A program made the position numbers and the translations under genes. Below the pieces are notes generated by a model. The model was not told the origin of the DNA and ran no database searches. It saw only the letters and a program-made list of their open reading frames with translations. From the IMG/VR virus record IMGVR_UViG_2877794441_000003, positions 2,815 to 66,814 of that record: a DNA stretch of 64,000 nucleotides; one strand, given 5' to 3'. This DNA is from a virus (Duplodnaviria > Caudoviricetes). Positions 16,250-59,222 of this stretch are shown here, in pieces; within the stretch, counting starts at the first letter, position 1, and every line of letters begins with the position of its first letter.

Positions 16250-17209
16250 TCAGGCAGCCGGGGCGGTGATTTCGTCGAGGTACGCGAAAGCGCCTGGCAG
16301 GCGGATCTCGGTACCGCCGGTGCGGGCGATGATGCCCGTCTCGAAGCCCATGATGGACTTCTGGCGTGGCGCCAGGACGCGGCGAGGCATCGGCAGGTGG
16401 AAGCGGACCACCTCCGGGTCCTTGCGGTAGGCAACCAGACGACCACCGCCGTCCTGGGAGGCGTTGCGGGCCTCGCGCAGCGGCTGAATGTCCAGCGCCT
16501 GGCCGGTCTCGGCGGTGTAGATGTTGTTGCGGCGGATGAACTCCAGCACGGTCATGAAGCCGTCACCAGCCCCCATGCGGCGGGTGGCCAAGTCACGGAA
16601 GGCGTCTGGCGGCATGCGCAGGGTGTCCGCCCATTCCACCTCACCGGTGTTGGTGCGCACGCTGCTAAGGACGCCGTTGATGTCGGCCAGGATCTGGTCA
16701 ACGGTCTTGCTCGCCCAGAAAGTCGAGCTGCCGGTGCCGGTTGCGGCCGCGTCAGTGCGGGCAACGATGGTGCTGTTCAGCAGGCCGGTCCAGTTCTTCT
16801 CGGTCGAGCCGCGCATGGCGATGTCGTTCAGCAGGCGCTCAACCTTGTCCGCGGCGCTCATGGCCTTGGTGTCGTTAAGGTTGACGCCATACAGAGCGGC
16901 CTGGTTGATTTCTTCCAGGTTCCACTCCCAGCCGGAGCCGATCATGGCGAAGTCGTGCGACGCCTGATCACGGGTCACCTGGTTGAACGGCATGTCGGTA
17001 CCGGCGCCGCTGAGGAACTTGGCTTCGCCGGCGGTATCGACGGTGAAGAAGGTGGTGCCGATAGCCCACGGCTGGCCTTCGGTCACGACCGGCACGTGCG
17101 CGGCGTAGTTGAAGGCTGGGTAGCGGCGTTGGTAGACGCGGGTCTCGATGTTACGGCCTTGGGCGATAACGAACGGGAGCGCCGCCTGAGCGTCTTCGAA
17201 GCGATTCAT
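16250..17209 (-). CDS. Major capsid protein (DUF2184 type)
   Basis: 319 aa; GWEWNLEEI and RTGGTEIRLPGAFAY motifs; follows decoration and scaffold genes. Confidence 0.85.
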   Translation of the reverse strand: MNRFEDAQAALPFVIAQGRNIETRVYQRRYPAFNYAAHVPVVTEGQPWAIGTTFFTVDTAGEAKFLSGAGTDMPFNQVTRDQASHDFAMIGSGWEWNLEEINQAALYGVNLNDTKAMSAADKVERLLNDIAMRGSTEKNWTGLLNSTIVARTDAAATGTGSSTFWASKTVDQILADINGVLSSVRTNTGEVEWADTLRMPPDAFRDLATRRMGAGDGFMTVLEFIRRNNIYTAETGQALDIQPLREARNASQDGGGRLVAYRKDPEVVRFHLPMPRRVLAPRQKSIMGFETGIIARTGGTEIRLPGAFAYLDEITAPAA

Positions 17210-17227: not shown

Positions 17228-17713
17228 TTAGGCGGAAGCGATCGGGCGCAGGCCCATGGAGATTTCGACGATGTCGCCGTTCGCGCCGGAGGTGTCGAAC
17301 ACGACATCAGGGAGCGGGCCGACGATGCCAGCGCCGGTAGCGGCGACGTAGCGGTTGGTGGTCGGGTTGTAGAACACCTCGCCGCCATCCACGACAGCGC
17401 CGCCGGCCTGGACCTTCATCGGGCCTTGGGTCATGAAGGCGCCGGTGAAGTACTGCGGGTAGCCGTCGACCAGCTGCGAGCCTTGAGCGACCGGCGGCAC
17501 TGCCGGGTTCAGCACTGCGAAGCCGATGAACGTGCCGGCGGAGAAAGGCACCACCCCGTGGTCGCCGGTGCCGCGCTGGACCGGGGCGCCGAAGCGGATG
17601 CCCTCTGGGTTCTCGACGGTGCGGGAGATCTTGTTGCACTTCTCCTCGCTGGCGATCTGGCCGACTAGGCCCTTGGCCGGGGCATTGGTATAGGTGGTTT
17701 GGTAGGTAGCCAT
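17228..17713 (-). CDS. Capsid decoration / cement protein
   Basis: 161 aa Gly/Ala/Val-rich, between scaffold and capsid genes. Confidence 0.75.
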   Translation of the reverse strand: MATYQTTYTNAPAKGLVGQIASEEKCNKISRTVENPEGIRFGAPVQRGTGDHGVVPFSAGTFIGFAVLNPAVPPVAQGSQLVDGYPQYFTGAFMTQGPMKVQAGGAVVDGGEVFYNPTTNRYVAATGAGIVGPLPDVVFDTSGANGDIVEISMGLRPIASA

Positions 17714-17725
17714 CGCTGGTTCTCC

Positions 17726-18859
17726 TTAGGCCTGGGCCGGGCGGTGGGCGGTTTGCATGTCAGCGATCATCTGCAGGCGCGCCTTCTCGGCGTCGTCGCC
17801 GGTGGTCTTGCTGTCCTGCTGGATCATGTGCTGGCGGAAAGGGTCGCCGGCCGGGTTCTTCGCGGCGTCCTCGACCAGAAGGTCGAAGCGAGCGTCGATG
17901 TAGGCCTCGGTCTTGCCAGCGATGGCTGCGTCGCCCAGCTTGGCGATGACCACGGCCTTGCGGATCTCCGCATCACCCTTGCCGGCGTAGTCGGCGTCGG
18001 CGATGGACTTGGCCTTGGTGATCAGGTCGGCGCGCGCCTGAACGCGCTTGTCGAGATCTGCGTCGCTGAGAACGGCCGCTTTCAGCTTGGTGATATCGTC
18101 GTCTTTCTTGGCCAGCTCGCTGTCCTTGGCCGCCAGGGCCACAGCGTGCGCGTCGGTCAGGGTCTTGATGTTGACGCCCGCGTCGGCCAGCTGCTTGGTC
18201 AGCTTGTCGATCGCCTGGGCGCCCTGGTCGGTGGTTTGAACGGACAGGCCATCAACAATGACCGTGCGCAGGGAATCAGCCATGTGATGGCCTCCTTTTG
18301 GGGGTGTGGGGTCGTTATCACCGATGCGAAGCTTTTCGCCACCTCGAGCGCGATGCTCCAGGCTGAGGTGATTCATTTTCATGGGGCCGAGGTAGACGTC
18401 GAAGTGCTCGCCATCCGGGGTCTTGCCGTCCTGGAACACCACTTCGGCGCCGTAGCCCATAGAGAGCTCGCGCTTGCCGGCCTCGTAGTCCTCGATGGCC
18501 TTGGCGTCCATCAGCACCAGCGGAACCTTGACGAATTCGCCGTCGCGGACGACTTCGCCGCCGGTCTGGCCGATGGCGTGGTCTTTCCAGTTCTTGGCGT
18601 TGACGCCCTCGCCGCCCGGGTGGCCGTTGGTCATGGGTCGGTAGGCGTAGGACTGCATGGCGTCCTTGTGGAATACCGAGCTCTCCGGCCGGTATACCTT
18701 GACGATCGGCTTGTCGCGCAGGCCGTGCTCGTTGTCCGGGTCGATCTCGGTGCCCAGGTAGTCCTGGATGCCGGTGCGAGCGACTCGGGCCTCGGCCACC
18801 AGGTAGCCGTCAGCCGTCCGCCGCACATTGGAAGCGGTGACAGAGTCTTGAAGGATCAT
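17726..18859 (-). CDS. Capsid scaffold/maturation protein (DUF2213)
   Basis: DGYLVAEARVARTGIQDYLG, RELSMGY and NHLSLEHRARGG motifs with a coiled-coil C-terminal region. Confidence 0.85.
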   Translation of the reverse strand: MILQDSVTASNVRRTADGYLVAEARVARTGIQDYLGTEIDPDNEHGLRDKPIVKVYRPESSVFHKDAMQSYAYRPMTNGHPGGEGVNAKNWKDHAIGQTGGEVVRDGEFVKVPLVLMDAKAIEDYEAGKRELSMGYGAEVVFQDGKTPDGEHFDVYLGPMKMNHLSLEHRARGGEKLRIGDNDPTPPKGGHHMADSLRTVIVDGLSVQTTDQGAQAIDKLTKQLADAGVNIKTLTDAHAVALAAKDSELAKKDDDITKLKAAVLSDADLDKRVQARADLITKAKSIADADYAGKGDAEIRKAVVIAKLGDAAIAGKTEAYIDARFDLLVEDAAKNPAGDPFRQHMIQQDSKTTGDDAEKARLQMIADMQTAHRPAQA

Positions 18860-18867
18860 GGTTTACC

Positions 18868-20664
18868 TCAGGGCTGCAGGTCTTCGAAGATTTCCGGCCC
18901 GAATTCGATCTTCCCGCGGTACGGCTCGACCTTGCTTAGGTCGAGATCGCCAGCGGCGTAGGTGATGGTCACGTGCGGCTGGTACTCCTCGTAATCCCAC
19001 GAGGCGCCGGCTTCACGGATCTGCATGTGTCGCCAGGCCAGTTCGGACGAGTTGAACAGCAGTACGACTGCGCCTTCTCCACCCAGCGGCTCGACCAGGC
19101 GCGCACCGCCCGGAGCGACGGCCAACCCGCCGTCCTGCCGGCTGCCCCAGTCGCCGCCAACCTTCATCCAGTCCAGCGCCTGCCTGCTGTATGCGATGGT
19201 GACGTGCAGTTCATCGGCCGGGACTGTGGTATCGAAGCCTTGGGCCTTGGCCCATGCCAGGATGTCGGCGCCGTTGGTGACCTTGCGCTGCACGTACAGC
19301 GGCCGCGGGGCTGCGTCACCGAGGGAGGTAGTGCGCGACGGGGTCTTGTTGCCCTCCTCGTCGATCTCCGGCTCTTCCTCGTCCGGCAGCTGCGATCCGT
19401 ACTCAGCAATCGCCGACTCCAGCCCAGGCAGAACGCTCTGCTCAACCAGCATGGTTGTTGCCGCCTTGCTCAGCGCCTCATCAGGGAACAGACCGGACTC
19501 CTTGAGGATCTTGACCGTCTCGGCCGCCCGCTTGCTGTTCTCCGACTGCTGAGTAGCTGTCGGCTGCCAAAGCGGGTTCCAGATGTAGTGGATTTTCTTG
19601 TCACGGCTGCCCAGGGCTGAACGGATCAGGCACTCGTCAGCCACGGACAGTGCCGGGGTGATATCAAGCTCCTGCATCGCCTGGATACGGTCGTAGTAGT
19701 TGCGCAGGTCCGATTCCCCGGTCGCACTCAGGCCCGAGGGCGCCTGCCCGATCAGGCGGGTGGCCGGGATGTCAGCAGCGCCGGAAACAGCCTGAAGGAA
19801 TCGATCGATGACGTCAGGCAGGCCGCCGAAGCTCGCCTGCTTGCTGTCGTAGTCTTCCGCAGCATCCAACAGCAGCGTGCCGTTGATGCCCTTCGCCATG
19901 GCCGCCAGCCGAATGCGCTCCAGCACCTGCTTTTCGAACGCTGGATCCTGCAATTGCTGCATGAAGTCCGGGATCTTGATGACGTCGACCTTGGCCTCGT
20001 AGACCAGGCTCGCCACGTTCGCGTTGGTGCCGTCCGATTGCTTGATGGCATCGAACACGGCCTGGAGCACGGAATCGCCCCAGCCATAATCGACCACCAT
20101 ATCGGCCCCGGGGTCTGGCAGCTCGGCGCCGATGAAGATGATCAGTCGTGACGGGTGAATCTTCAGCTGGCTGCCGCTGACGGTGTACCACTTGGGCTTT
20201 TCGAACAGTTCCGACTGCGGGTCCTGCTCAATCTCGCCGGCGGCCAGCTTGCGCTTGCTCAGTACGGTCAGGTACTTGATGCCGCCCTTCCCGATCCGCT
20301 CAGGATTGAGCGGGCCGGAGGTGTCGCGCTCACCGGTACCGATGAAAATCGCCGAGCCACCGAACAGCCTTGCCCGGGTCAGTGCCTGTTTCACCTTGCG
20401 GCGCAGGTCCAAGCGCTTCTCTTCGGCCTCGATCTTCTCGATCTGGTCCTTGGTAGCCTGCCAGCCCCGCCAGCGCCGTGTAGCGTCCAGCGGCGGGATG
20501 TCGACGATCTTGCGCGGCAGCCAAGCCCCTCGGTAGGCGTTGCTCAGGTCCTGATCAGTCAGCATCACAGGCGCATACACGGACCCCGATGCCTTGTCGC
20601 GGTCGGTGCCCAGGTTCGCCACCAGGTTCACCAGCTTGTCGCTGAGGTATCGGACTACGCCCAT
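18868..20664 (-). CDS. Portal protein (DUF1073) fused to C-terminal Acb1-like 2H phosphoesterase
   Basis: N-terminal ~430 aa portal (PRKIVDIPPLDATRRW, DIPATRLIGQAPSGL, NYYDRI); acidic linker; last ~145 aa carry LHVTIAYS and PHVTITY 2H motifs. Confidence 0.85.
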   Translation of the reverse strand: MGVVRYLSDKLVNLVANLGTDRDKASGSVYAPVMLTDQDLSNAYRGAWLPRKIVDIPPLDATRRWRGWQATKDQIEKIEAEEKRLDLRRKVKQALTRARLFGGSAIFIGTGERDTSGPLNPERIGKGGIKYLTVLSKRKLAAGEIEQDPQSELFEKPKWYTVSGSQLKIHPSRLIIFIGAELPDPGADMVVDYGWGDSVLQAVFDAIKQSDGTNANVASLVYEAKVDVIKIPDFMQQLQDPAFEKQVLERIRLAAMAKGINGTLLLDAAEDYDSKQASFGGLPDVIDRFLQAVSGAADIPATRLIGQAPSGLSATGESDLRNYYDRIQAMQELDITPALSVADECLIRSALGSRDKKIHYIWNPLWQPTATQQSENSKRAAETVKILKESGLFPDEALSKAATTMLVEQSVLPGLESAIAEYGSQLPDEEEPEIDEEGNKTPSRTTSLGDAAPRPLYVQRKVTNGADILAWAKAQGFDTTVPADELHVTIAYSRQALDWMKVGGDWGSRQDGGLAVAPGGARLVEPLGGEGAVVLLFNSSELAWRHMQIREAGASWDYEEYQPHVTITYAAGDLDLSKVEPYRGKIEFGPEIFEDLQP

Positions 20665-21950
20665 TAGGAAACACCTGCGAGGGAGTACTTGTTGATTGGG
20701 TACTCTTTGTGGATGAAGTAGCCGCCGGCGTCTGGCCGGTGGTCGTTGCCCTGCTTCTTGTCCGGCTCGCCGTTGTCGCCCCAGATCTGCTGCTCGAGGT
20801 CATCGGCGTAGGTCGGGCACTTGTCGGCGTTGATCCGGTACCGGCGCTGGCCCGCGGCGTTGCAGAACATGGCGTTCATTGAGTTGATGCGGTCTTTCAC
20901 GGGCGGGTTAGCACCGGGCGCCGACACCATGAATCCGGCCTGCTTGAGCAGGGAGATGTCGGTCTCACTGGCCCGGACGGACTTGCGAGAGTCGCCCGAG
21001 GCATCCGGATAGACCCGGATCTGTCGGGTGTTGCGGAAGTCGCCGTCGGCATACAGCCAGTAGCGCTCCTTGATCTGGCGGATCATGTCGGGCGTGTCGT
21101 AGCCGTTGATGATCTCGTCCACCGCGTGCGGCAGGCCCAGGCGCTTCACGTGCACCACTGCCGACATCTTCCCGACGTTGAAGTCCATGCCGATGAACAG
21201 GGCCTCGCCAGGCTGGATAGTCTCCTGGCTGCCGTTGAGCTTGCGGTCGTAGGCGGTGTAGATCGTCCCGGACGTCAGGTTGACGAATTGGCCATTCAGG
21301 TAGGCCATGATCAACTGCTCAGGGTATGAGTCCATCAGCGACGGAATGTAGTCCGGCGGCAGATTCAGCTCGTTGTCGAACGTGCTCGCCTGCACCAGGC
21401 CGTACATGTCGTTCAGCGCCGGTTTCTCGCGCAGCTGCTTCACGAACTGCTGATAGACGAACTTGAACCCCTCGGGGGTCGTGGTGACGTCTACACCGTT
21501 CTTGAGCCCGTCCACGTTGTAGCGCATACGGGCGATGATCTTGCGCCAGGCGTGCTCAGCCTTCAGCTTGGGCAGGACGTCCAGCTCATCGACCAGAGCG
21601 TGCCCGATCTTGAAGCCCACGATGGTCTGGGGCTTCTCCATCGAGCGGCAGATGGTCGTGCTGCGGTACTGACCACCGCTGTAGAACTCGACCTCCTTGT
21701 CGCTCTCCTTCGTCTTGACCTTGAGGCCCCAGTCGAAGGCGACCTCCTCAATGGTCGGGAAGAAGATGTCGCGGATCTGCGGGTACGTCGGGGCGAAGTA
21801 GCCGGAGTTGATCCTGGGCCATTCCCAAACGTGCTTGCAGATGCCAGCGCAGCCTACCCAGGTTTTGCCCGAGCCGAAGCCAGCGACGAAGCCGCGGAAC
21901 TTGTGCCGCATGTTGATGAAGGTGGCCTGCGGGACGTTAAGCGTCGGCAT
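20664..21950 (-). CDS. Terminase large subunit
   Basis: Walker A GFGSGKT, Walker B LVDELD, C-terminal nuclease GMDFN and DHRPDA. Confidence 0.93.
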   Translation of the reverse strand: MPTLNVPQATFINMRHKFRGFVAGFGSGKTWVGCAGICKHVWEWPRINSGYFAPTYPQIRDIFFPTIEEVAFDWGLKVKTKESDKEVEFYSGGQYRSTTICRSMEKPQTIVGFKIGHALVDELDVLPKLKAEHAWRKIIARMRYNVDGLKNGVDVTTTPEGFKFVYQQFVKQLREKPALNDMYGLVQASTFDNELNLPPDYIPSLMDSYPEQLIMAYLNGQFVNLTSGTIYTAYDRKLNGSQETIQPGEALFIGMDFNVGKMSAVVHVKRLGLPHAVDEIINGYDTPDMIRQIKERYWLYADGDFRNTRQIRVYPDASGDSRKSVRASETDISLLKQAGFMVSAPGANPPVKDRINSMNAMFCNAAGQRRYRINADKCPTYADDLEQQIWGDNGEPDKKQGNDHRPDAGGYFIHKEYPINKYSLAGVS

Positions 21951-22398
21951 CGCGCTTCCTCGCATCCATCACCGTGACCTGTACCGAGGTGGGTACCGCG
22001 TTGTCGAGCGGGCTATCCACCTTCGTCTGCCGGTTCACGTACACGTCGCCTACTTCCTTGGCCGCCTGCTCCAGTAACTGGGCGGTCAGGGCCATATTCT
22101 TCATGCTCTCGGCCTTCTCGGCCATGCGACCCAGTGTGCGGAGGCGGTAGGCTCGGTGCGCGATTGGGATATCAGCAGTCTCGGTGGTGAAGCGCTCCCG
22201 GCATGCGTGGAACATATCCACCCAGCGCTTGGCCAGGCCGCGCCCGGCGAACTTCGTAGGATCGTGCGATTCGCACTGCTGCCGACTGACATCGACGCTG
22301 AATTCTTTTTTGACAGCCTCCACCACCTGGGACGGTGTATCGAAGCAGGCCAGAGCCTGAACAATGAAGGCTTTGACCTCGCTTCGTAGTGCTGCCAT
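21937..22398 (-). CDS. Terminase small subunit (DUF2280-like)
   Basis: MAALRSEVKAFIVQALACFDTPSQV N-terminus; directly upstream of terL. Confidence 0.85.
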   Translation of the reverse strand: MAALRSEVKAFIVQALACFDTPSQVVEAVKKEFSVDVSRQQCESHDPTKFAGRGLAKRWVDMFHACRERFTTETADIPIAHRAYRLRTLGRMAEKAESMKNMALTAQLLEQAAKEVGDVYVNRQTKVDSPLDNAVPTSVQVTVMDARKRDADA

Positions 22399-22428: not shown

Positions 22429-23037
22429 TCAGGCCGACTTGAGTAGGCAGGTTCCGCAGGCCCTCGAAATGTTGATCTTGGCCACTTCAGGTGGCCGGCT
22501 TGCAGCGTCGATCAGCTGCTGTACGTCGTGACTGGCACCGTAGCGGCGAACCACACCGACGAACTCCTCGACGTCATGGCCGCGCATCTCAAGCTTAGGC
22601 ATGCCGTCATCGCCGAACGCTGGGGCGCCGTACTTATCGAGCTTGTGGCCGATGTGGTACAGCTCATGCTCGACCAGGGCGCAGAACTCGGCCTCGGTGC
22701 ACTGGGAGCAGTAATCGGCGGCCAGGGTGATGAGGAACTCGGGCTCTTCGCCGAACCAGCCCCGCATCTGCTGCTCTTGGCGAGCCTTCTGCCAGCCGCC
22801 CGCGCGGATCATCAGTTGCTCAGCCTGGCCCAGCACTGAGCGGCCCTTCTTCGCAAAGCTGGACGACGCCCACATGACACCGATGCTCGCATCGATCAGA
22901 TGAGCATGCTCTTCGTTGTGGATGCTGCCGGTGGTGGCGAGGATCTCGGCCTGTATCCACTCCCACAGATCGGGAGCAGGCTTGAGGATCAGGAATGGCG
23001 ACTCGAGCAGGTCGGCCGGCGGCATTGGCCGGGTCAC
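22429..23037 (-). CDS. Putative phage metallopeptidase
   Basis: HELYH (HExxH) plus GHDVEEF motif. Confidence 0.75.
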   Translation of the reverse strand: MTRPMPPADLLESPFLILKPAPDLWEWIQAEILATTGSIHNEEHAHLIDASIGVMWASSSFAKKGRSVLGQAEQLMIRAGGWQKARQEQQMRGWFGEEPEFLITLAADYCSQCTEAEFCALVEHELYHIGHKLDKYGAPAFGDDGMPKLEMRGHDVEEFVGVVRRYGASHDVQQLIDAASRPPEVAKINISRACGTCLLKSA

Positions 23038-47369: not shown

Positions 47370-47771
47370 ATGGCGAATGCCACAGCAGCAAAGCCCTCAA
47401 GCATTCAGCCGCGGTTCATCCGGTTCGGCGATGCGCCTGGATATCTCGGCATGTGCCGGGATGAGTTCAACAAGACGGTCAGGCCGAACGTGCGGGAATT
47501 CCCTATCGGAAAACAGGGCGTTGCCTTTGACCGCCAGGAGCTTGATGAGTGGGCGGACGCCTACATCGAAGCCAAGGCGATTGAAAAAGCCACCGGACAG
47601 GACAACAATCGGCCCCGCAGCGAGCGCCGAGGAGATGATACATGGCGCGAAAAACGATCACCGGCCTCTACGAGAAGGGCGGTGTCTGGCAAATCGACAA
47701 AGTCTACAAAGGGGAGCGAATTCGAGAGAGTACTGGAACTGGTGACCGGGAAGAGGCAGAGCAGTACCTGA
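47370..47771 (+). CDS. Putative excisionase / recombination directionality factor
   Basis: PRFIRFGDAPGYLGM...FDRQELDEWAD HTH; overlaps integrase start. Confidence 0.65.
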   Translation: MANATAAKPSSIQPRFIRFGDAPGYLGMCRDEFNKTVRPNVREFPIGKQGVAFDRQELDEWADAYIEAKAIEKATGQDNNRPRSERRGDDTWREKRSPASTRRAVSGKSTKSTKGSEFERVLELVTGKRQSST

Positions 47772-48820
47772 TCCACAAGCTCGAGCAGCTACGTCAAAGG
47801 AAGGTGTATGGCGTTCGGCAAGTGCACACCTGGGAGGAGGCGGCAATGCGCTACCTCCTTGAGGTCAAGGATCAGCCCTCCATTCACCTGACTGCCTTGT
47901 GCATGAAACAGCTTCACCCGTATCTGGGCCACCTACCGCTGACGCACATCGATGACCAGGCGCTGGAGCCGTTTATCAGGGATCGGCAGACAGAAAAGGT
48001 TCTGCCGGATGGGACCATTGAAAAGGCCGTGAGCAACCGGACGATCAACATCGCCATCGAGCGCGCGGTCCGGGTTTTGACGCTCTGCGCCAGGAAGTGG
48101 CGAGACGATGATCGCCGGCCATGGCTGGACAGTGTGCCCATGCTGAGGAAGCTCGAAGAGAAGAAGTCGAGCCGTAAGCCCTACCCTATGTCATGGGAAG
48201 AGCAGTCGATCCTCTTCAACGAGTTACCGGGCCATCTGCAAACGATGGCCCTGTTCAAGGTAAACACGGGCTGCCGGGAGCAAGAGGTGTGCAAGCTGAG
48301 GTGGGATTGGGAGATATCGGTGCCGGAACTGGGAACCAGTGTTTTCCTGATCCCCGCTGACTTCGGCGGGAGACACGCCCGGTCGGGCGTAAAGAATGGT
48401 GACGAGCGCCTGGTGGTGCTGAACAACGTGGCGAAGTCGATTATTGAAAGGCAGCGCGGGATCAGCAAGGAATGGGTATTCCCATACAACGGCACCGCGA
48501 TGCACCGGATGAACGACTCGGCGTGGAAGAAGGCACGGGTGAGAGCGGCGAAACTCTGGCAGGAGGAAAACCTTCGCCCCGCTCACCCTGGATATGCCTC
48601 GATCAGGATTCACGACTTGAAGCACACCTTCGGTCGACGACTGCGGGCAGCAGGCGTTACTGAAGAGGATCGGAAATCACTGCTCGGGCACAAGAACGGC
48701 AGCATCACCAGCCACTACTCCGGCGCTGAGCTGGGCAAGCTGATTGAGGCTGCGAACATGGTATCAACAACTGACTCTCGCGGGCCGGTGTTGACGATCT
48801 TGAAGAGGAAAATCGGATGA
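47642..48820 (+). CDS. int: Prophage tyrosine integrase
   Basis: TGCREQE (R), VKNG (K), HDLKH (HxxK for HxxR), LLGH and HY (Tyr) catalytic motifs. Confidence 0.93.
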   Translation: MARKTITGLYEKGGVWQIDKVYKGERIRESTGTGDREEAEQYLIHKLEQLRQRKVYGVRQVHTWEEAAMRYLLEVKDQPSIHLTALCMKQLHPYLGHLPLTHIDDQALEPFIRDRQTEKVLPDGTIEKAVSNRTINIAIERAVRVLTLCARKWRDDDRRPWLDSVPMLRKLEEKKSSRKPYPMSWEEQSILFNELPGHLQTMALFKVNTGCREQEVCKLRWDWEISVPELGTSVFLIPADFGGRHARSGVKNGDERLVVLNNVAKSIIERQRGISKEWVFPYNGTAMHRMNDSAWKKARVRAAKLWQEENLRPAHPGYASIRIHDLKHTFGRRLRAAGVTEEDRKSLLGHKNGSITSHYSGAELGKLIEAANMVSTTDSRGPVLTILKRKIG

Positions 48821-48854
48821 AGTCCCGAAAAACTCCCCACATGCAAAAACGACA

Positions 48855-48873
48855 AAGCCACCCGGAGGTGGCT
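48855..48873 (-). terminator. Hairpin downstream of tRNA fragment
   Basis: AGCCAC-N6-GTGGCT with T-rich tail on minus strand. Confidence 0.45.
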
Positions 48874-48889
48874 AAGTCGTTGAAATATA

Positions 48890-48934
48890 TGGTCGGGACG
48901 GAGTGATTCGAACACTCGACCCCTTGCACCCCAT
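48890..48934 (-). other. 3' half of tRNA-Pro(GGG): att core, not a complete tRNA
   Basis: Minus strand ATGGGGTGCAAGGGGTCGAGTGTTCGAATCACTCCGTCCCGACCA: anticodon loop, T arm with GTTCGAA, CCA end; no D arm or 5' acceptor strand upstream. Confidence 0.85.
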
Positions 48935-49056
48935 AAAGGTAAATACCCATCCTATCTGATTCAACCTCATCCGAAGCATAATGCTCAAACCCCTGTTTTA
49001 CTGGATTTTATCCATTCTACTGTCCAAAATAGCCCACAGCTGTTCGAGGAAAGCCG

Positions 49057-49114
49057 ATCTCAATTGGCAACGAATTGGCAACCAGAGAATCTCAATTGGC
49101 AACCAATTGGCAAC
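49057..49114 (+). repeat. Four AATTGGCAAC repeats, putative integrase arm-binding sites
   Basis: Exact 10-mers at 49062, 49073, 49094 and 49105 between att core and integrase start. Confidence 0.75.
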
Positions 49115-49129
49115 GGAAAAACTAACCAA

Positions 49130-50494
49130 ATGGCCAAGATTACAGACCGACAAATGACCGCCAAACCCGGGGCCAGTGACAAGTGGCTCAGTGAAGTTGC
49201 CATCTGGGGGCATGGCAGCCTGGTCGCTCGCATCACCACCAGCGGAGAACGCCTCTTTTATTTCCGTTACGCGAACAGCATCGGTGAACGTATCACCTAT
49301 CCCATCGGCACCTACAGCCGTGAGGGGCTTGAGGGAACCATGACCCTGGCCGAAGCTGGCCAACGTGCGAAGGAACTTGCTGGCCTGCACAAGGCAGGAG
49401 TTCGGGATATCCGGGAGCATTTTGAAGCTGAAGAGGCCGCGCGCGTGGCCACCCGGGACGCCGAGCTCGCTCGCCTAGCAGCAGAAAAAGCAGCCGCAGA
49501 AGCGGAGCAAGCCCGACAGGCCGCAAGAAAAAGCGTCTCCGAGCTATTCGAACACTGGGCCACCGTCGACCTAATCAACCGCAAGGATGGTGGAGCAGAG
49601 GTTCGCCGCATGTTTGAAAAGGACGTTTTGCCATTGTTAGGCAAAATAGCCGTAGCAGACGTAAAAAAAGGGCACATCACCGAAGTGACCGATGCCCTTC
49701 TCGCTCGCGGCGTCAACCGTATGGCCAAGCTGATCCTTAGCCTGATGCGACAAATGTTTCGGTTCGCAGTAGATCGAGACCTGATTGAGCACGATCCGAC
49801 TGCCAGCATCCGTAAGGCCAAGATTGGCGGCAAGGAAGTCGAACGCGACCGAGTGCTGAGCGATGATGAGATCCGCGCCCTAGCCCTGCTCACTCCTGAA
49901 GCCGGCCTACTCCCGTCCACCGAAGCTGCAATCTGGGTTGCCCTCTCCACCTGCTGCCGCATTGGAGAACTGCTCAATGCACGCTGGGAGCACCTTGATC
50001 TCGCCAGAGGCATTTGGCTCATACCGGCAGAGAACAGCAAAAACGGAAAAGCCCACAGCATCACGCTCTCTTCATTTGCCATCCGGCAGTTCAAAAAAAT
50101 CAGAGTACTTAACAGTCACTCCGCTTGGTGCTACCCCAACACGGAAGACAGCGGCCCGGTCTGTTCCAAGACCGTAACCAAGCAACTTGGCGACAGGCAG
50201 CGCCAGCCTGATCAGGGAGTGATGAGTAATCGTAGCGCCAAAGCACAAGCCCTCTTGTTGAGCGGAGGGAAATGGACCCCGCATGATCTGAGGCGCACCG
50301 GCGCCACTATCATGACTGCCTTGGGAGTACTTCCTGAAGTAGCAGAACGGTGCCTGAATCACACTGAAGAAAACAAGGTTAAACGCACCTATCAGCGTCA
50401 TAGCTATACAAAAGAGATGGCTGACGCTTGGCACAAGCTTGGACTACATTTGGACCAAATGGTCTCAGAGACTCTCGTCACCGCATCTTTATAA
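49130..50494 (+). CDS. int: Island tyrosine integrase with N-terminal arm-binding domain
   Basis: MAKITDRQ..LFYFRY arm domain; TCCRIGE, SKNG, HDLRRT, CLNH and TY catalytic motifs. Confidence 0.93.
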   Translation: MAKITDRQMTAKPGASDKWLSEVAIWGHGSLVARITTSGERLFYFRYANSIGERITYPIGTYSREGLEGTMTLAEAGQRAKELAGLHKAGVRDIREHFEAEEAARVATRDAELARLAAEKAAAEAEQARQAARKSVSELFEHWATVDLINRKDGGAEVRRMFEKDVLPLLGKIAVADVKKGHITEVTDALLARGVNRMAKLILSLMRQMFRFAVDRDLIEHDPTASIRKAKIGGKEVERDRVLSDDEIRALALLTPEAGLLPSTEAAIWVALSTCCRIGELLNARWEHLDLARGIWLIPAENSKNGKAHSITLSSFAIRQFKKIRVLNSHSAWCYPNTEDSGPVCSKTVTKQLGDRQRQPDQGVMSNRSAKAQALLLSGGKWTPHDLRRTGATIMTALGVLPEVAERCLNHTEENKVKRTYQRHSYTKEMADAWHKLGLHLDQMVSETLVTASL

Positions 50495-50656
50495 GATATT
50501 GTTGCACCCGTATAGTCCACAGAACCTGCAAGAGACGACTTTAGCAACAGACGTTCGATCTCACCTCTCGTGCTGGCCCCACTACACTGAGGCCCCATTC
50601 GAACAATGAGGAGTATAAGCTTGTCTTTCCGGAATGAGCGTGGACCAAAGCCAGAT

Positions 50657-51616
50657 ATGCGTACAGCGACGATATTACTCGCCCAAGCTGAAAACGTCGA
50701 AAAGCAGGTACGTGATCTGCAGAAGATCGCTTTGCCTGCACACCAACAACACGCGCAGTGGTTGTATGAAAGGATGGAAAGCCTAGAGATCCAACCTTCG
50801 CAAGATCAACAAATCGAGCTGACTATCCGACAAGGTAAACATGCGATTGACGAGCAATTATCCAAGCATTCCGAGATAGCTTTACGCCAAGCAGTCTATG
50901 TGAAATATATTTATAAAAATCATTTCATCCCAATAAGTTCCCTAGAAGCCGCTGCAACTGATCATATCCTGCAGAAGATGATCAATGCCCTGATGCTATC
51001 CAATCGCCACTTGGCGATGCTCGAAGCACTCAAAAATCTGGAAAGCAAGCACTACAGCAATCGAGCAAGCGCCGGGGGACAGGGCAAGAATCAGCAGCCC
51101 TCTAATAGCATGAAATCACTGCTTCTTGAATCCATGATCCGAGGCATGATATATAACGACCCTAAATTTAAAAAATTGGATAAAACCGTAGCTGCCGACG
51201 AAATGGCAACACGCATTTTCAAAGCCAACAAAGAATACCAAATGTTAGACATCACCAACCTCGAAGACTTAAAATTCCAGGTTCGCAATGTCCTGTTTGA
51301 TATTACTCGCACTGTCACCCGAGGCAGTCAGCGACAAGCGGATCGAGAACAATTAGGATACTCGCTGCGCCATTCGTTTCCCAAGCAGGATACGGAAGAG
51401 TCACGCCAGATGGATCTAGATGCCGCACGCACCCTGGGGCGTATTGAAGGCGTGCGAGCAACATTAGCTCTGCAACTTAAACAGCGCTTTGGGGAATTGC
51501 CGAAATCAGCAATTGAAAAGCTGGAGGCTACAAACGACATGGATCAACTGCAAACCTGCGCAGAGCAGCTAGCAGAGGTCCGATCGCTGGATGACGTCAT
51601 CCAGAAACTCCAGTGA
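50657..51616 (+). CDS. Hypothetical protein with C-terminal DUF4351/Rpn-tail-like domain
   Basis: C-terminal GRIEGVRATLALQLKQRFGELPKSAIEKLE...QLQTCAEQLAEVRSLDDV; N-terminal region unrecognised. Confidence 0.65.
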   Translation: MRTATILLAQAENVEKQVRDLQKIALPAHQQHAQWLYERMESLEIQPSQDQQIELTIRQGKHAIDEQLSKHSEIALRQAVYVKYIYKNHFIPISSLEAAATDHILQKMINALMLSNRHLAMLEALKNLESKHYSNRASAGGQGKNQQPSNSMKSLLLESMIRGMIYNDPKFKKLDKTVAADEMATRIFKANKEYQMLDITNLEDLKFQVRNVLFDITRTVTRGSQRQADREQLGYSLRHSFPKQDTEESRQMDLDAARTLGRIEGVRATLALQLKQRFGELPKSAIEKLEATNDMDQLQTCAEQLAEVRSLDDVIQKLQ

Positions 51617-51809
51617 ACGAAATTCACCTATAATGAAACGCCATCCTAACGGGTGGCGCTCTCGACTTACACGAAACGGCAAAACTTACAACACACCTGC
51701 AAGAAACCGAGCCTTTCAGGCTAATCATCATAATCGAGACCTCAAAACAAACTTATACCTCGACATCTATCCTGATCTCGACACAACATCACGAAGGACC
51801 CATACACCC

Positions 51810-53288
51810 CTAAATTGAAGACTTGTAAGGAGAGATAATAGTCCTAGGAGAAAAGTTACTCATCGAATACTCAGGAAAAATATCGAGACATGTAACATTT
51901 CCAAGCTTTGACAGCAAAACCTTACCCTGCGTCGAGAGTACCTCAATGGCCGAATCTAACCGCTTTACTTTTCGTAACTTCCCAGGCCCCTTTTGCAGTA
52001 TGATATTCTTTGCTACAAATCTATCACCTGCCTCACGCCTTACTTGTAGCCAGTCATCCAACTCTTGTGCGTCGATCTCTTCCTGAGGCAGCGATGTAAA
52101 CAGACGCAGAAACTCGCCAGAGTACCAAAAGCACACATCAGCAGCAGCATCCAAGGTCTCCAGAGCTATATCACCACTCCCTCTCTCAAAGAAATGAAAC
52201 AGGGCAGCCACCCTTGCAATATTGCCTGCCAACTTTGACGCATGATCACCCATACCAAAAAACCTTCCTCCCGGCCCAATACCCGACTCAATCGCATTGA
52301 AAATTTCTATCCATTTTTGAGCCGCCGCCTGAGAAAACCTAATCACTAACCTGGACCTAGCCGGATCCATCAAGAATCCAACACTTTCTTTAAGTATCTC
52401 CCCAATGCGCTCAGAGAATTTCTCGCAACAATTCCAAGTGACCACCCCTCCACCAATCAATCTAGTTCCCTGGGTCGATCTTGGATTGCAAACCAAAAAC
52501 CTAGCCCACAAACCAGATCCCCGTGATATCTCTCCATTCTTTTCCATATAACTCAAGAAAGTTTTTTCTTGAACCATTATCGATACCGTCAGACGAGCTC
52601 TTAGCTCGTAGCTTTCAGACGATACTCGATCAACAGTTATTGCATCCCCACTCCACAAGGCATTCTGCTTCGACAAATCATTAAATGCCTTGCCACTCAA
52701 CACTCCCCCACCCTCACTAGAAATTAGCCCTGCTGCAGGAATGTTCTGATATAACCCCAAAAACAAAGCCTCTGAGGTAGCATCTTCGTAGATTAACTTA
52801 AAACGTCTAGGCTTGACCGGCTCATTACCCATATGCGCCATAAATATCTGATATTCGTCACCTTCCTCTTCATCACCTGAACGAAGTATTTCCTTCAACA
52901 TGGCCTTCCGGCGAGCCTCCCAGACTGACCATTTCGCATTCCATTCAGAAAGCTTCTTAAGATAAATCAAATCCTTTTCATCCTGAAAATTGCGAACTCC
53001 TCTAAGAAATATATTCTCCGCCGTAGACTTCCTCTCTCCAGAGTTCGCAATCGTCAGCAGCATCAGCGATGCTGGAACTATTTGTCCATTCGGCTTACAA
53101 ACATCAATCAAACCTTGAGAAGCTGTAGCGATCGCCGTCAGAGCAGATGAAAAAACGAGTGCCCTCGGGGCCTTTATATGCCCTTCCGCCTCATCCACCG
53201 CACTCACTATCACCGGTAAAGACATATACCTTGGAAAGCCCCCCTCCAAAGCAGAGCCCCCCCAAGACCCAAAGCTAGAGAAACTCAT
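51810..53288 (-). CDS. YfjI family protein (DUF3987)
   Basis: IANSGERKS Walker-A-like, EDATSEAL, SSEGG, SGLWARFL motifs; low GC. Confidence 0.85.
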   Translation of the reverse strand: MSFSSFGSWGGSALEGGFPRYMSLPVIVSAVDEAEGHIKAPRALVFSSALTAIATASQGLIDVCKPNGQIVPASLMLLTIANSGERKSTAENIFLRGVRNFQDEKDLIYLKKLSEWNAKWSVWEARRKAMLKEILRSGDEEEGDEYQIFMAHMGNEPVKPRRFKLIYEDATSEALFLGLYQNIPAAGLISSEGGGVLSGKAFNDLSKQNALWSGDAITVDRVSSESYELRARLTVSIMVQEKTFLSYMEKNGEISRGSGLWARFLVCNPRSTQGTRLIGGGVVTWNCCEKFSERIGEILKESVGFLMDPARSRLVIRFSQAAAQKWIEIFNAIESGIGPGGRFFGMGDHASKLAGNIARVAALFHFFERGSGDIALETLDAAADVCFWYSGEFLRLFTSLPQEEIDAQELDDWLQVRREAGDRFVAKNIILQKGPGKLRKVKRLDSAIEVLSTQGKVLLSKLGNVTCLDIFPEYSMSNFSPRTIISPYKSSI

Positions 53289-53291
53289 AAA

Positions 53292-53549
53292 TCAAACACC
53301 TTCAGAGATCACGACAAAATCTTCCTGGCCTCTTTGAGGCCTAGATCCAATCCACCGATATATATCTTCCTCAACCCAACCCACCGCAAACCTCCCCAAC
53401 TTAATTGGCTTTGGGAATGTACTATCGTATCTAGGCGACATTGGATTTAGTCGGTCATAAATTGTCGATCTACTCAGCCCAATGCACTCTCGCAACTGCC
53501 GAATGCGTAAAATTCTTAATGTTGATTTACCACTACTTTCGTTGCCCAT
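53292..53549 (-). CDS. alpA: AlpA family regulator / RDF
   Basis: ILRIRQLRECIGLSRSTIYD..FPKPIKLG..VGW. Confidence 0.9.
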   Translation of the reverse strand: MGNESSGKSTLRILRIRQLRECIGLSRSTIYDRLNPMSPRYDSTFPKPIKLGRFAVGWVEEDIYRWIGSRPQRGQEDFVVISEGV

Positions 53550-53742
53550 CACCACGCCCTCTTCAGTTGCGAACTCAATAGGGAAGGACTCTACAGCCCG
53601 TGCCACTAGGAGTCGTCAGGGGTGCTAAATGGGTTTTCCAAAGCTAAGCAGATGTATTGACATTTTAGAAACACTGCGATCTAGAAATTGTCATCCTAGT
53701 AGCTTGTCCCCACCCCACCGGATTTAGCCGGGACCACTGCAG

Positions 53743-53776
53743 CTGCTATTCCTGCTATTAGTAGCAGGAATAGCAG
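53743..53776. repeat. Perfect 15-bp inverted repeat
   Basis: CTGCTATTCCTGCTA-TTAG-TAGCAGGAATAGCAG. Confidence 0.85.
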
Positions 53777-53862
53777 TCTTGCTTGCCGTTCAGATCCCTT
53801 CCGTCCTTCGGAACCCAGTCGCCCCATAGCCAGGAAAAACGTTGACTCTCAGTCAGAACGAC

Positions 53863-54309
53863 TCAGGGGGCCACTGATTGCCGGTCGATCCACAACTGCA
53901 GTAAGGCTTTTCCAGGCCCAGTGGGATGACGTCGCCCCTGCTCCCAGTCCTGCAGCGTGCGAGCGCTGACCCCCAAATGCGCAGCGAGCTCTTGCTGGGT
54001 TAGCCTCAAGCGTTGGCGCAAGCAACATGCAAGCCTGATGATGCTTGAGTCTGGCGTGACTCCGTGACACATCTTTGGCCGTTTATGCGGGAAGATCTCC
54101 GAGACTTCGAAATTAGACGAAGCAGCTCCAGCTAAAGGTAATGTGTAATTTGACTCCGGCGCTGTATTTACCCTCGCATGCCATGGGAGAGGAGCAGCCC
54201 GGACAGATGGAGATGAACTCTCCGGTTCATACCGAAGCTCCTGGCACTGTTGTTCATACTCAGGATGTTCGGCAAGAAATTTACGACGCCAATAATCGCT
54301 GTAGCTCAT
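53863..54309 (-). CDS. XRE-family HTH protein
   Basis: C-terminal LTQQELAAHLGVSARTLQDWEQGRRHP. Confidence 0.75.
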   Translation of the reverse strand: MSYSDYWRRKFLAEHPEYEQQCQELRYEPESSSPSVRAAPLPWHARVNTAPESNYTLPLAGAASSNFEVSEIFPHKRPKMCHGVTPDSSIIRLACCLRQRLRLTQQELAAHLGVSARTLQDWEQGRRHPTGPGKALLQLWIDRQSVAP

Positions 54310-54391
54310 ACGAAAGACTCCTATCTAGTGAGTTATAGTGCGGCAATGCCGGACCATACAATAGGTAAATTGAACAGGTATGCCGCAGCAC

Positions 54392-55084
54392 TCAGATTCG
54401 GCTGGTAGTGAACACAGCAAAGCCTTGCCCTAACTCTTGCGCCTTGCTGTACGTCTTGCACAAGTAGCTCATAGCGTAGACAACCGGCCTGAGCGAGTCA
54501 GGAAAGCGTCGATCCAAGCACTGGTAAACCCGCCCACTTAGTTTGTCTTGGCAGGCATGTACTAGCCCTGACATCTCGTATTCAGAACAACCAATTGCCC
54601 AGGCCCAAGCACGCACGACGCGATGAAACAAGTTGTTCCTACTATAAGTACCGTCGTCGCTAGGCCCGTAGTTACCTAGGCCCCCGATGGCGTCGTAGTT
54701 GAGCAGCAACATGACGTGGTAATGCGGTGCTTGACTGCTGTTACGCTCTCGACACCAGATGTAGCGGATATCAGTCGTGTACTTTGTACTCGCCCAGGTC
54801 AGCTCTTTACTTAGATGGTAGAAGAAGCGACTCATCACCTCATTGCTGACGAGCGCATCTGACGGCATCAGGCCGACGGGGTAACGCAAGTCTACCCTAC
54901 AGACCAAGGTACGGGCCTGTACCGAGAGACAGCTTTGCAAAGTTTCAAGTCCACGCTCCAGGTAGTTTTCAATCAAAGGGCCGTGTGTCAGCTGCTGCTG
55001 CACAGCGAAACCACGATACTCGTTGCCGTAGTGTAGTTTGAGTTTAGTATTGATTGGGTGACGCTTCGGTTGATGATGAAACAT
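54392..55084 (-). CDS. Inovirus Gp2 family (HUH endonuclease-like) protein
   Basis: CRVDLRYP, YIWCRE, PHYHVMLLLN (HUH) and SYLCKT (catalytic Tyr-like) motifs. Confidence 0.8.
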   Translation of the reverse strand: MFHHQPKRHPINTKLKLHYGNEYRGFAVQQQLTHGPLIENYLERGLETLQSCLSVQARTLVCRVDLRYPVGLMPSDALVSNEVMSRFFYHLSKELTWASTKYTTDIRYIWCRERNSSQAPHYHVMLLLNYDAIGGLGNYGPSDDGTYSRNNLFHRVVRAWAWAIGCSEYEMSGLVHACQDKLSGRVYQCLDRRFPDSLRPVVYAMSYLCKTYSKAQELGQGFAVFTTSRI

Positions 55085-55781
55085 AGTTAATTTCCTGTCG
55101 GCCGTATATGGAGGACTCACCGGCAGGCACACGGGACCAGGTGCACTCAAGCACCTTGTTTCGACTTATACGCCTGGACTATCAACACGTTGACTTGCAG
55201 TCAACACTGCACATTGCTCCTGCAATTTATGGCAGATCTGTATTGCAAACAAATAACATGATAGCGCTCTATTGGTGAACGATATCTATTACGGTAGAAT
55301 CCATAGCAACCACATTAATTACTGGTTACTGCATCGATACTTATTAGACGCATACTACTTAAACCGTAACAGTAGCGATGCCGCACATGCAAAAAACCCA
55401 AGGAATAGACCTCATTAGAAACCCACCCCCAGGATAACAGCAAGAAAACTCAAACAATAAAACCCAAAAAGATTCCATTTTCATTAAAAGCAAAAGCCGT
55501 ATGAGCCGACAGGCGTGTGCCGCCTGCAAAATTAAGTCATGTAGACACCTCATACCACCAACACGTAAAAACTTACGACACTGCCGTATTAATGTCACCA
55601 CGAGGACTTTAAAGGGCAGTTATAAACGGCTCTGCCGTACATAGACGATCCGATACGAGCTGAATCAAAAAAATCTCAGATCTATATCACCTCTGTGAAC
55701 GCCCCACAGTATCAAATGCCGTCGGGAATTTGGCGTGCCAGCTCTTGGCTAAGCACGCTCATCACTTGAGAGGATCTGGAT

Positions 55782-57226: not shown

Positions 57227-58231
57227 ATGAAAGCAACGTCATTGAATAGCAGCACCTGCCAGAAACGCCCCGCCCTGCGCCTGGTCAGCACCAAGGAGCT
57301 GCCCCGCGAGGACTGGTTGCAGATCCGCAAGCAAGGCATCGGCAGTTCGGATGCTGCCGCTGCGGTGGGTCTGAATCCCTACAAATCGCAGCTGGAGCTA
57401 TGGCTGGAGAAGACCGGTCGCGATGCCAGCATGCCCAAGGTCGATCCTCACGATGAGGAAAGCCCGCTGTACTGGGGCAATGTGCTGGAGCCTATCGTGG
57501 CCTGGCATTACAGCAAGCGCAGCCTGCACAAGGTCCGACGGATCAACGCGGTGCTGCAGCATCCCGATCCGGCGCTGCCCTGGATGCTCGCCAATATCGA
57601 CCGCGAGGTGATCGGTACCGACGATGTGCAGATCCTAGAGTGCAAGACTGCCGGCATAAACGGGGCACGCCTCTGGAAAGAGGGCGTGCCCGAATATGTG
57701 CAACTGCAAGTCATGCACCAGCTTGCAGTTACTGGCAAACATGCCGCTGATGTGGCGGTGCTGCTCGGTGGCCAGCATCTGGAAATCCATCGCATCACAC
57801 GCGACGAGGAGCTGATTACGCGGCTGATTGACCTAGAACGGCTGTTCTGGGACTACGTCGTCAGTGACACCCCGCCACCGGCCGATGGCACAGCGTCTGC
57901 GGAAGCGGCTTTGCGCTGCCTCTATCCCGAGGATAACGGACAGACCCTGGACTTCAGCCAGCACACGGAACTGTCCAGCACCTTTCTTGAACTCAAATCT
58001 GTTCGTCAGAACATTGCTCAGCAAGAAACACGTGAGGCACAGCTTAAGCAAGTTCTGCAGCAGGCCTTGGGGGAAGCCACCCGTGCAGAGTTTGCCGAGG
58101 GCTACATCAGCTGGAAGCAGTCCAAGGACAGTATTGGTCTGGATGTCGAACAGATGCTCAAAGACAAGCCGTACCTGCAGGCCCGCTATCCCAAGACCAA
58201 CGCAGGCAGCCGTCGCTTCCTGATCGGCTGA
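57227..58231 (+). CDS. YqaJ-like viral recombinase exonuclease
   Basis: RKQGIGSSD, WGNVLEP, ANIDR, LECKT and QVMHQL motifs. Confidence 0.9.
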   Translation: MKATSLNSSTCQKRPALRLVSTKELPREDWLQIRKQGIGSSDAAAAVGLNPYKSQLELWLEKTGRDASMPKVDPHDEESPLYWGNVLEPIVAWHYSKRSLHKVRRINAVLQHPDPALPWMLANIDREVIGTDDVQILECKTAGINGARLWKEGVPEYVQLQVMHQLAVTGKHAADVAVLLGGQHLEIHRITRDEELITRLIDLERLFWDYVVSDTPPPADGTASAEAALRCLYPEDNGQTLDFSQHTELSSTFLELKSVRQNIAQQETREAQLKQVLQQALGEATRAEFAEGYISWKQSKDSIGLDVEQMLKDKPYLQARYPKTNAGSRRFLIG

Positions 58232-58307: not shown

Positions 58308-59222
58308 ATGCTCAAAGGTTTAGCCATCACTCCGCCGGTACTCGGGCGCATTTCCATCGGTAAGGTCGTCGAGAAAAACGGCAAGCGTCTGCCTGAGAAA
58401 GATGATCAGTTCACCATCACCTCGCAAGTCCAGAGCCGTGACGGCTGGTTAATGCATCCACTCAATGAGGAACTGCGCAATGGCCAGGATGGCAAGCTAC
58501 GCAGCATTCCCATCCGATTGCTGTTCAACGAACCGGACCTCAACTTTCGCGCGGACTACAGCCTGTTCGACCGTACCACCGGCAGGCCGTTGTGCGTCGG
58601 CAACGGTGAAACGTGTAAGCGCTTGACCAAGGACGGCATCCAGTCGCTGCCCTGCCCTTCACCTGATGGCTGCTCACTGGCCCAAGGCAATGCCTGCAAG
58701 CCTTACGGTCGGCTGAACGTGGTGATTGGCGATGACGACCCACTGGGCAGTTTTGTGTTCCGCACCACCGGATTCAACAGCATTCGCACCCTAGCAGCGC
58801 GTCTGCATTACCTGCAAGCCATCTCTGGCAATCGCCTGGCCTGTCTGCCCCTGGAGCTGCGTCTGCGCGGTAAATCCACGCGGCAGAGCCATGGCACGCC
58901 GATCTTCTACGTCGATATCACAGTGCGCAGTGGACTGCCCCTAGAAGACGCCTTGCTCGCCGCCAAGCAACTGGGGGAAGCCCGACAAGCCTCGGGCTTT
59001 GACCAAAGCGCCTTGGACCACGCGGCCCGACAGGGTTTTAACAATGGAGCCTTTGAAGACAGCGAGGAGGACACCGGCGCCATTGTCGAAGAGTTCTTTC
59101 CCTCTACTGAAGACCCACCCAGCAACGCAGCCCCCCAGCTGACAGCGTCTTCAAAGCCCTCACTGGCTCAGAAGTTGGAGACTCAGTCTATCGGGCACAG
59201 CACGAGGCCTTCAGTCCAATAA
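58308..59222 (+). CDS. Conserved hypothetical protein of YqaJ cassettes (putative recombination partner)
   Basis: MLKGLAITPPVLGRISIG, LCVGNGETC and FRTTGFNSIR motifs; always-adjacent synteny recalled, not computed. Confidence 0.65.
   Translation: MLKGLAITPPVLGRISIGKVVEKNGKRLPEKDDQFTITSQVQSRDGWLMHPLNEELRNGQDGKLRSIPIRLLFNEPDLNFRADYSLFDRTTGRPLCVGNGETCKRLTKDGIQSLPCPSPDGCSLAQGNACKPYGRLNVVIGDDDPLGSFVFRTTGFNSIRTLAARLHYLQAISGNRLACLPLELRLRGKSTRQSHGTPIFYVDITVRSGLPLEDALLAAKQLGEARQASGFDQSALDHAARQGFNNGAFEDSEEDTGAIVEEFFPSTEDPPSNAAPQLTASSKPSLAQKLETQSIGHSTRPSVQ

Follow-up and report, generated by a model that had tools for sequence, protein, structure and literature searches.

An Acb1-like 2H phosphoesterase domain fused to the portal protein of a Pseudomonas prophage

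The stretch of DNA analysed here (the window) comprises 64,000 nucleotides of a Caudoviricetes virus, positions 2,815 to 66,814 of the IMG/VR record IMGVR_UViG_2877794441_000003, and carries at 18868..20664 on the minus strand a Pseudomonas prophage gene that encodes a portal protein fused to an Acb1-like 2H phosphoesterase. The gene product is a normal Phage_portal_3 portal followed by a flexible acidic tether of ~25 residues and an Acb1-family 2H phosphodiesterase of ~149 residues. Sequence, profile and fold fully support the identity of the C-terminal domain, which is predicted to be an active enzyme directed against the signal molecules of CBASS, a bacterial defence against phages that signals through cyclic oligonucleotides. 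All coordinates refer to the window, and all features of the gene and its head-gene neighbours lie on the minus strand.

Architecture of the fusion protein and identity of its C-terminal domain

The open reading frame (ORF) is listed with exactly the limits given in a preliminary description made from the sequence alone. It is complete, with an ATG start and a TGA stop (18868-18870), and encodes 598 amino acids that include every sequence string quoted there, namely the acidic linker PDEEEPEIDEEGNK and then RPLYVQRK, LHVTIAYSR and RHMQIREAGASWDYEEYQPHVTITY. The portal core (aa 40-385, 19510..20547) was recognized by PF06381 (Phage_portal_3) with an E-value of 5.7e-109 and 364.5 bits against a cut-off of 33.8, as well as by TIGR01555, the NCBIfam HI1409-family portal, with 295.5 bits against a cut-off of 196, while PHROG_146 'portal protein' spans aa 5-588, i.e., the entire fusion. 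The best PDB match of the full-length AlphaFold2 model was the portal of cyanophage Pam3 (8hds_A; E 2.5e-34, TMt 0.74, 44% identity), and the top structural matches (8hds, 8fvh, 9kmh and 9l01) were all phage portals. The C-terminal crown helices of the portal were assigned to aa 386-424 (19393..19509) from the model, which contains helices at 370-390, 395-408 and 415-422, and from column conservation, with the portal core terminating at the crown end in a conserved V-L-P-G-L-E...G-S-x-L-P block (also written ...VLPGLE-A-x-E-Y-G-S).

PF06381 and PF23474 (Acb1) occur together in 119 of the 120 best homologs, and the segments behind the crown were delimited with these 119 domain-bearing proteins. 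The acidic linker, aa 425-449 (19318..19392), is variable in both length (18-34 aa) and sequence and is predicted to be disordered, as the predicted local distance difference test score (pLDDT) of the full-length model falls below 50 at aa 425-436 and 438-449. It is followed by a D-A-A-P/A-R motif, aa 450-454 (19303..19317), which opens the enzyme domain, aa 450-598 (18871..19317), and is conserved nearly throughout (D 118/119, A 118/119, A 117/119, P/A 118/119 and R 119/119). The preliminary description had placed the start of the domain at ~19305, where Pfam also begins it; the location is right, whereas the conserved start lies four residues upstream of both, at D450 (nt 19317).

The reading of the C-terminal part as an Acb1-like 2H phosphoesterase, also made in that description, was borne out by profile, sequence and fold. 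Pfam Acb1 matched aa 455-597 with E 9.7e-43 and 145.8 bits against a cut-off of 27, covering profile positions 2-138 of 144, and the isolated domain scored 150.6 bits. Searching the C-terminal 145 aa against PDB sequences retrieved residues 470-610 of the Pam3 portal (8hds, E 8.7e-34) and, with the two HxT motifs in register, Acb1 of Erwinia phage FBB1 (7t26, E 1.6e-12), and with a profile built from 40 relatives the match to 7t26 rose to E 1.1e-19 and reached the C-terminus. The AlphaFold2 model of the domain was of high confidence (pLDDT 92.7, predicted template modelling score 0.86). The Foldseek comparison with Acb1 that had been proposed ranked 7t26/7t27 first (E 9.4e-10, template modelling (TM) score 0.74-0.78), next the Acb1-type phosphodiesterase of Burkholderia phage BCSR5, on whose phosphodiesterase structures no literature was found, and only from rank 6 on E. 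coli LigT (5ldm) and other 2H enzymes with TM ~0.6.

LigT and 2'-5' RNA ligase-type 2H enzymes have the superfamily fold and the HxT/S dyad in common with the domain, and a grouping with RNA 2',3'-cyclic phosphodiesterases or ligases had been raised as the result that would speak against Acb1. The profiles of these enzymes stayed below their cut-offs, with 19.2 bits for the whole protein and 24.3 bits for the domain alone against 27 for 2_5_RNA_ligase2 (PF13563), and 16.1 and 20.5 bits, respectively, against 23.3 for LigT_PEase (PF02834). An RNA-ligase or LigT identity was rejected on these scores, on the TM of ~0.6 and on a genomic context that consists of head genes only, with no RNA-repair partner. 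The label 'RNA ligase' of phrog_755 is a legacy name of gp57B-type proteins.

Active site, missing lid and predicted activity

The contacts published for T4 Acb1 (PMC9117128) were transferred to the window protein by sequence alignment through gp57B of phage RB32, a T4-type Acb1. Both HxT motifs are intact and align with FBB1 and T4-type Acb1: T4 H44/T46 corresponds to H487/T489 in the first (H487-V-T489, 19198..19206), and T4 H113/T115 corresponds to H564/T566 in the second (H564-V-T566, 18967..18975). In the same alignment Y12 of T4, in the N-terminal L-Y-V strand, falls on Y457, F107, the aromatic residue six positions ahead of the second His, on Y558, and E141, the adenine-contacting Glu near the C-terminus, on E594 or D595.

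Two of the four published stacking contacts have no such counterpart. In T4 Acb1 the lid (aa 145-152) shuts over the ligand and W147 stacks on the substrate (PMC9117128). The window protein ends in ...F-E-D-L-Q-P-stop (18868..18888), four residues before that position, so the C-terminal lid Trp is absent, a point that the preliminary description did not raise. This was shown by comparison with FBB1 Acb1 and the Pam3 portal, which carry it ~9 residues past the Glu of a GPE motif; the subfamily consensus has it as well. At the position of T4 W74 there is no aromatic residue either; V524 or E525 stands there, depending on the aligner, and the entire portal-fused subfamily reads R-x-V-E-P-L-G. The W74-equivalent aromatic is a trait of the characterized Acb1 enzymes and not part of the Pfam definition. 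Recovery of the lid by stop-codon readthrough was considered and rejected: the stop is genuine, since readthrough meets a second stop four codons on and only 8 nt separate the stop from the start of the gene that follows.

The loss of the lid is a feature of many relatives, as the lid Trp is absent in 61 and present in 58 of the 119 domain-bearing homologs, and several short stand-alone relatives likewise lack it, while three 607-aa portals that are 96-97% identical to the window protein retain the full lid. In the 61 lidless cluster representatives, H487, T489, H564, T566, E591, Y457, W471 and W499 are 100% conserved, and so are R522, F537, R545, W556, D557, Y561 and F593. At the first HxT, H and T are found in 61/61 lidless proteins, and H in 57/58 and T in 58/58 lidded ones. 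At portal identities that drop to ~57%, the two sets show almost no variation at the catalytic residues and at ~ten further positions of the pocket or core. In an alignment of 62 fusions, which is biased as ~26 rows were picked by similarity of the domain, all 23 invariant columns fall within the Acb1 part. Judged by the full conservation of active-site and pocket residues in the 61 representatives, the lidless domains are not decaying copies. The window copy belongs to this lidless subclade, and without equivalents of W147 and W74 its kinetics or substrate range may therefore differ from those of T4 Acb1.

The domain is probably an active Acb1-type phosphodiesterase that is tethered to the portal, made with the head proteins and most likely directed against CBASS signals; the substrate, the anti-CBASS effect and the final location of the domain are the parts of this reading that we infer. 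The mechanism and breadth of Acb1 have been described (Hobbs 2022, PMC9117128). Characteristic of Acb1 are cleavage of 3'3'-cGAMP and cA3 on the 3' side of adenosine and protection of the phage from CBASS. The likeliest substrates of the window enzyme would be 3'-5'-linked cyclic di- and trinucleotides, hydrolysed by the metal-independent HxT/HxT chemistry shown for the T4 and FBB1 enzymes, in which attack of the 2'-OH would give a 2',3'-cyclic phosphate intermediate and then a linear 3'-phosphate product. As a piece of the portal, the enzyme would be made from the late head operon and so would appear at head assembly, a known trigger stage of CBASS. This timing, also invoked in the preliminary description, fits the mapping of CBASS escape mutations to the prohead protease, capsid and tail fibre, i.e., to late virion assembly (10.1101/2023.05.21.541620).

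Several points weigh against this reading. The lid Trp and the aromatic at the W74 position are both missing, and substitutions among the nucleotide-coordinating residues disrupt Acb1 function (PMC9117128). Co-occurrence with CBASS lends no help: among 301 Pseudomonas species genomes, Acb1 was above the cut-off in five, always in frames of 624-645 aa, and SMODS in 20, with an overlap of Acb1-portal and SMODS of 0 against ~0.3 expected, where five genomes are too few for a conclusion. No SMODS cyclase was found in the 66.8-kb record, which covers only the provirus. No biochemical or genetic test of any portal-fused Acb1 was found in the literature.

Fate of the domain in the particle and competing readings

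The C-terminal crown and barrel of portals face the capsid interior, and twelve Acb1 copies are therefore expected to enter each procapsid, where the domain would either stay tethered or be clipped off by the neighbouring head protease. In Pam3, the barrel and crown are the innermost portal parts (PMC9942802), and 442 of the 621 portal residues were modelled in the virion structure, the Acb1-family domain (residues ~452-619) not being among them. The full-length model of the window protein aligns with 8hds along 430 columns, whereas 8hds is not among the matches of the domain model. The Pam3 paper does not mention the Acb1-family domain of the deposited portal sequence (PMC9942802). The invisible domain may be either floppy on its tether or removed, and both fit equally well. 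Packaging and delivery of the window domain are speculative, since the portal stays with the capsid and the Pam3 domain is unmodelled.

The best surviving competitor to an enzyme acting late in the producing cell holds that the fusion serves mainly for delivery: Acb1 domains, twelve in number, would be carried by the portal into the procapsid and clipped in or near the linker or DAAPR by the head maturation protease, and the freed ~16-kDa domains would exit with the DNA, so that the next host would hold the enzyme ahead of all phage gene expression. We regard this as plausible but less likely than not, and as an addition to late activity in the cell instead of an exclusion of it. Delivery was proposed by Iyer and Aravind for 2H, Nudix, ADP-ribosyltransferase (ART) and other domains on portal or MuF proteins (PMC5512222, PMC9503650), and the occurrence of the Acb1 domain in portal-ART, oxidoreductase, MuF and LPD polyvalent proteins follows the pattern of head-packaged effectors. 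The protease gene lies 8 nt downstream, the invariant DAAPR motif sits exactly at the junction of linker and domain, and the absence of the domain from the Pam3 portal model would be accounted for, though a floppy tether accounts for it equally well. The dose would also suffice, because twelve molecules in a cell of ~1 fL amount by our own arithmetic to ~20 nM, within the in vitro active range of T4 Acb1, which at 1-10 nM cleaves ~40-80% of 3'3'-cGAMP (~79% at 10 nM; source data of the published assay). Against delivery stands that the domain would have to be cut from the portal and then leave by a narrow channel, with a minimum diameter of 24 Angstrom (PMC9942802), which a folded 16-kDa domain could pass only by unfolding.

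The motif itself speaks on both sides. DAAPR is absent from T4-type Acb1. It is also N-terminal in short, apparently stand-alone relatives and may be a mere part of the fold, and of 141 diverse 50%-cluster representatives, 87 contain the similar pattern D-[AS]-x-P-[RK]-x-L-Y-[VIM]. The motif may cap the fold at its N-terminus or serve as a protease site. Release of a free domain by internal initiation was rejected, as no in-frame ATG, GTG or TTG exists from the GAGGAGG stretch in the linker to V458.

A second competing reading accepts an active 2H phosphoesterase and gives it a substrate outside the set of T4 Acb1, admitted by a pocket more open without the lid and W74. Candidates are cyclic oligonucleotides that are larger or otherwise different, such as the signals cA3, cA4 and cA6 of type III CRISPR systems, 2'-5'-linked signals and RNA 2',3'-cyclic phosphate ends. 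Besides the two missing tryptophan contacts, the portal-fused subfamily has the extra invariant residues W471, W499 and W556, which are absent from T4-type Acb1. Rings of more than three bases are excluded from T4 Acb1 by steric clashes and not by chemistry (PMC9117128), and for portal- and MuF-fused 2H domains roles as RNases or in degrading 2'-5' oligoadenylates were weighed in 2017 (PMC5512222). However, LigT, CPDase and Usb1 are all more distant, by both sequence and structure, than the characterized Acb1 enzymes; the lid comes and goes between portals as close as 96-97% identity, which speaks for a shared function of the two forms; and the head module contains no RNA ligase or repair partner. 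A different substrate is improbable, and less likely than delivery. A bolder combination, in which the lidless, W74-less and DAAPR-headed portal Acb1 proteins would form a functionally distinct subclass that is released by the protease at the invariant junction motif, co-ejected with the genome as a ready enzyme and, through its more open pocket, shifted in its substrates, e.g., to larger cyclic oligonucleotides, seems to us a comparably long shot.

The relatives further suggest, from sequence identities, that portals trade the enzyme cassette through recombination at the linker. A natural domain-less portal (P0110; 452 aa, 22 member sequences) has a core 81% identical to that of the window protein and diverges and ends in the acidic linker, which indicates that the domain is dispensable to the portal and that the module boundary is the linker. 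Identities of portal and Acb1 to the window protein are decoupled in domain-bearing relatives, with 75%/95% in P0038, 80%/94% in P0028 and 77%/61% in P0047, which is the pattern of a cassette swapped by recombination. A purely structural appendage with irrelevant catalysis (an internal plug, DNA-end holder or assembly aid), suggested by a location where some portals bear a barrel and by the presence of the domain in nearly all close relatives, is most improbable in view of catalytic His/Thr and pocket residues more invariant than the portal, the dispensability seen in the domain-less portal, the decoupled identities of an exchangeable cassette and the lack of order in the Pam3 virion map.

Genomic neighbourhood and comparison with known systems

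The portal-Acb1 gene is placed between the genes of the large terminase (TerL) and the head protease, which are followed by those of the cement and major capsid proteins. The large terminase gene directly upstream (20664..21965; Terminase_6N and Terminase_6C) overlaps with its last base the first base of the portal gene. Directly downstream, 17726..18859 encodes a head maturation protease whose tail is scaffold-like (Pfam DUF2213; phrog_530, E 1e-99); after it, 17228..17713 encodes a capsid cement protein of the E217 gp24/Pam3 gp6 type (PF22758) and 16250..17209 the major capsid protein (PF09950; phrog_264).

Elsewhere in the window, the 202-aa protein encoded upstream of the terminase genes at 22429-23037 (minus strand) received conflicting labels, as it matched both the Pfam 'Putative phage metallopeptidase' (E 5e-44) and the PHROG_513 'transposase' (E 5e-96). 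Behind the second of two tandem integrase genes (47642-48820 and 49064-50494) comes an island of low GC content (~0.48), where 51810-53288 is a DUF3987 primase/helicase-like gene and 54392-55150 one of the YagK/YfjJ type, and the region 47642-55150 resembles a small satellite or an integrative element that has inserted beside the prophage. Past the island, 57227-58231 encodes a YqaJ-like recombinase/exonuclease and 58308-59222 a Gp3-like recombination directionality factor, which suggest further mobile-element DNA or the beginning of a second prophage.

The fusion is common. At E<=1e-3, an exhaustive search of the domain against 1.84 billion representatives gave 2,077 clusters, and at E<=1e-30 it gave 541; most are proteins of ~600 aa whose C-terminal part is the domain. 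A search for related loci in species-representative genomes gave only two. Longer relatives (P0250, P0290, P0371, P0366 and P0267) carry the domain in portal-Acb1-ADP-ribosyltransferase, portal-pyridine-nucleotide-oxidoreductase-Acb1 and Acb1-MuF arrangements, in a polyvalent protein of 3,342 aa that contains LPD5 and LPD1, and in ChaB-Acb1. Many homologs are named 'anti-CBASS protein Acb1 family protein' in NCBI and UniRef, including 98% identical proteins from Pseudomonas qingdaonensis and P. putida-group strains, and the deposited DUF1073/'anti-CBASS protein Acb1 family' portals of Pseudomonas prophages are up to 98-99% identical to the window protein, with no difference of substance. The cultured Pseudomonas phage psageB2 encodes the same lidless fusion (gp065, MZ348425) and shares the module of TerL, portal-Acb1, DUF2213, cement and major capsid protein.

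Fusions of 2H domains to MuF and portal proteins were described by Iyer et al. in 2017, who suggested that they degrade the nucleotides of nucleotide-activated defence (PMC5512222), and in 2022 such fusions were taken to suggest head packaging and injection against SMODS, cyclic-mononucleotide and CRISPR signalling (PMC9503650); portal fusions are not mentioned by Hobbs 2022 (PMC9117128). Thus the fusion, named in Pfam, NCBI and UniRef and discussed in print, is already known, and the window adds an example and not a concept, the idea itself having appeared in print as a prediction by computation. The small new details are a lidless subclade whose catalytic residues are perfectly conserved and the DAAPR motif at the junction. 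An active domain would show that phages can build an enzyme of counter-defence firmly into a virion protein that they cannot do without; the enzyme would then be sure to be there during assembly, when CBASS fires, and perhaps also within the particle.

Compared with Acb1 of T4 (gp57B) and FBB1 (7t26/7t27; PMC9117128), the window protein shares the 2H phosphoesterase fold and both HxT motifs at only ~29-33% identity; it is fused to a portal whereas theirs stand alone, and its gene lies in a late head operon whereas that of T4 adjoins ipI. The Pam3 portal gp3 (8hds; PMC9942802) shares the two-domain architecture, with 44% identity over the portal core, as well as the head module and the cement-protein family, but keeps the lid Trp that is absent here. 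With the head-packaged 'polyvalent' effectors (PMC5512222, PMC9503650), for which the published proposal is computational only, the window protein has exactly the architecture and the proposed role in common, in a minimal two-domain form without further effector modules.

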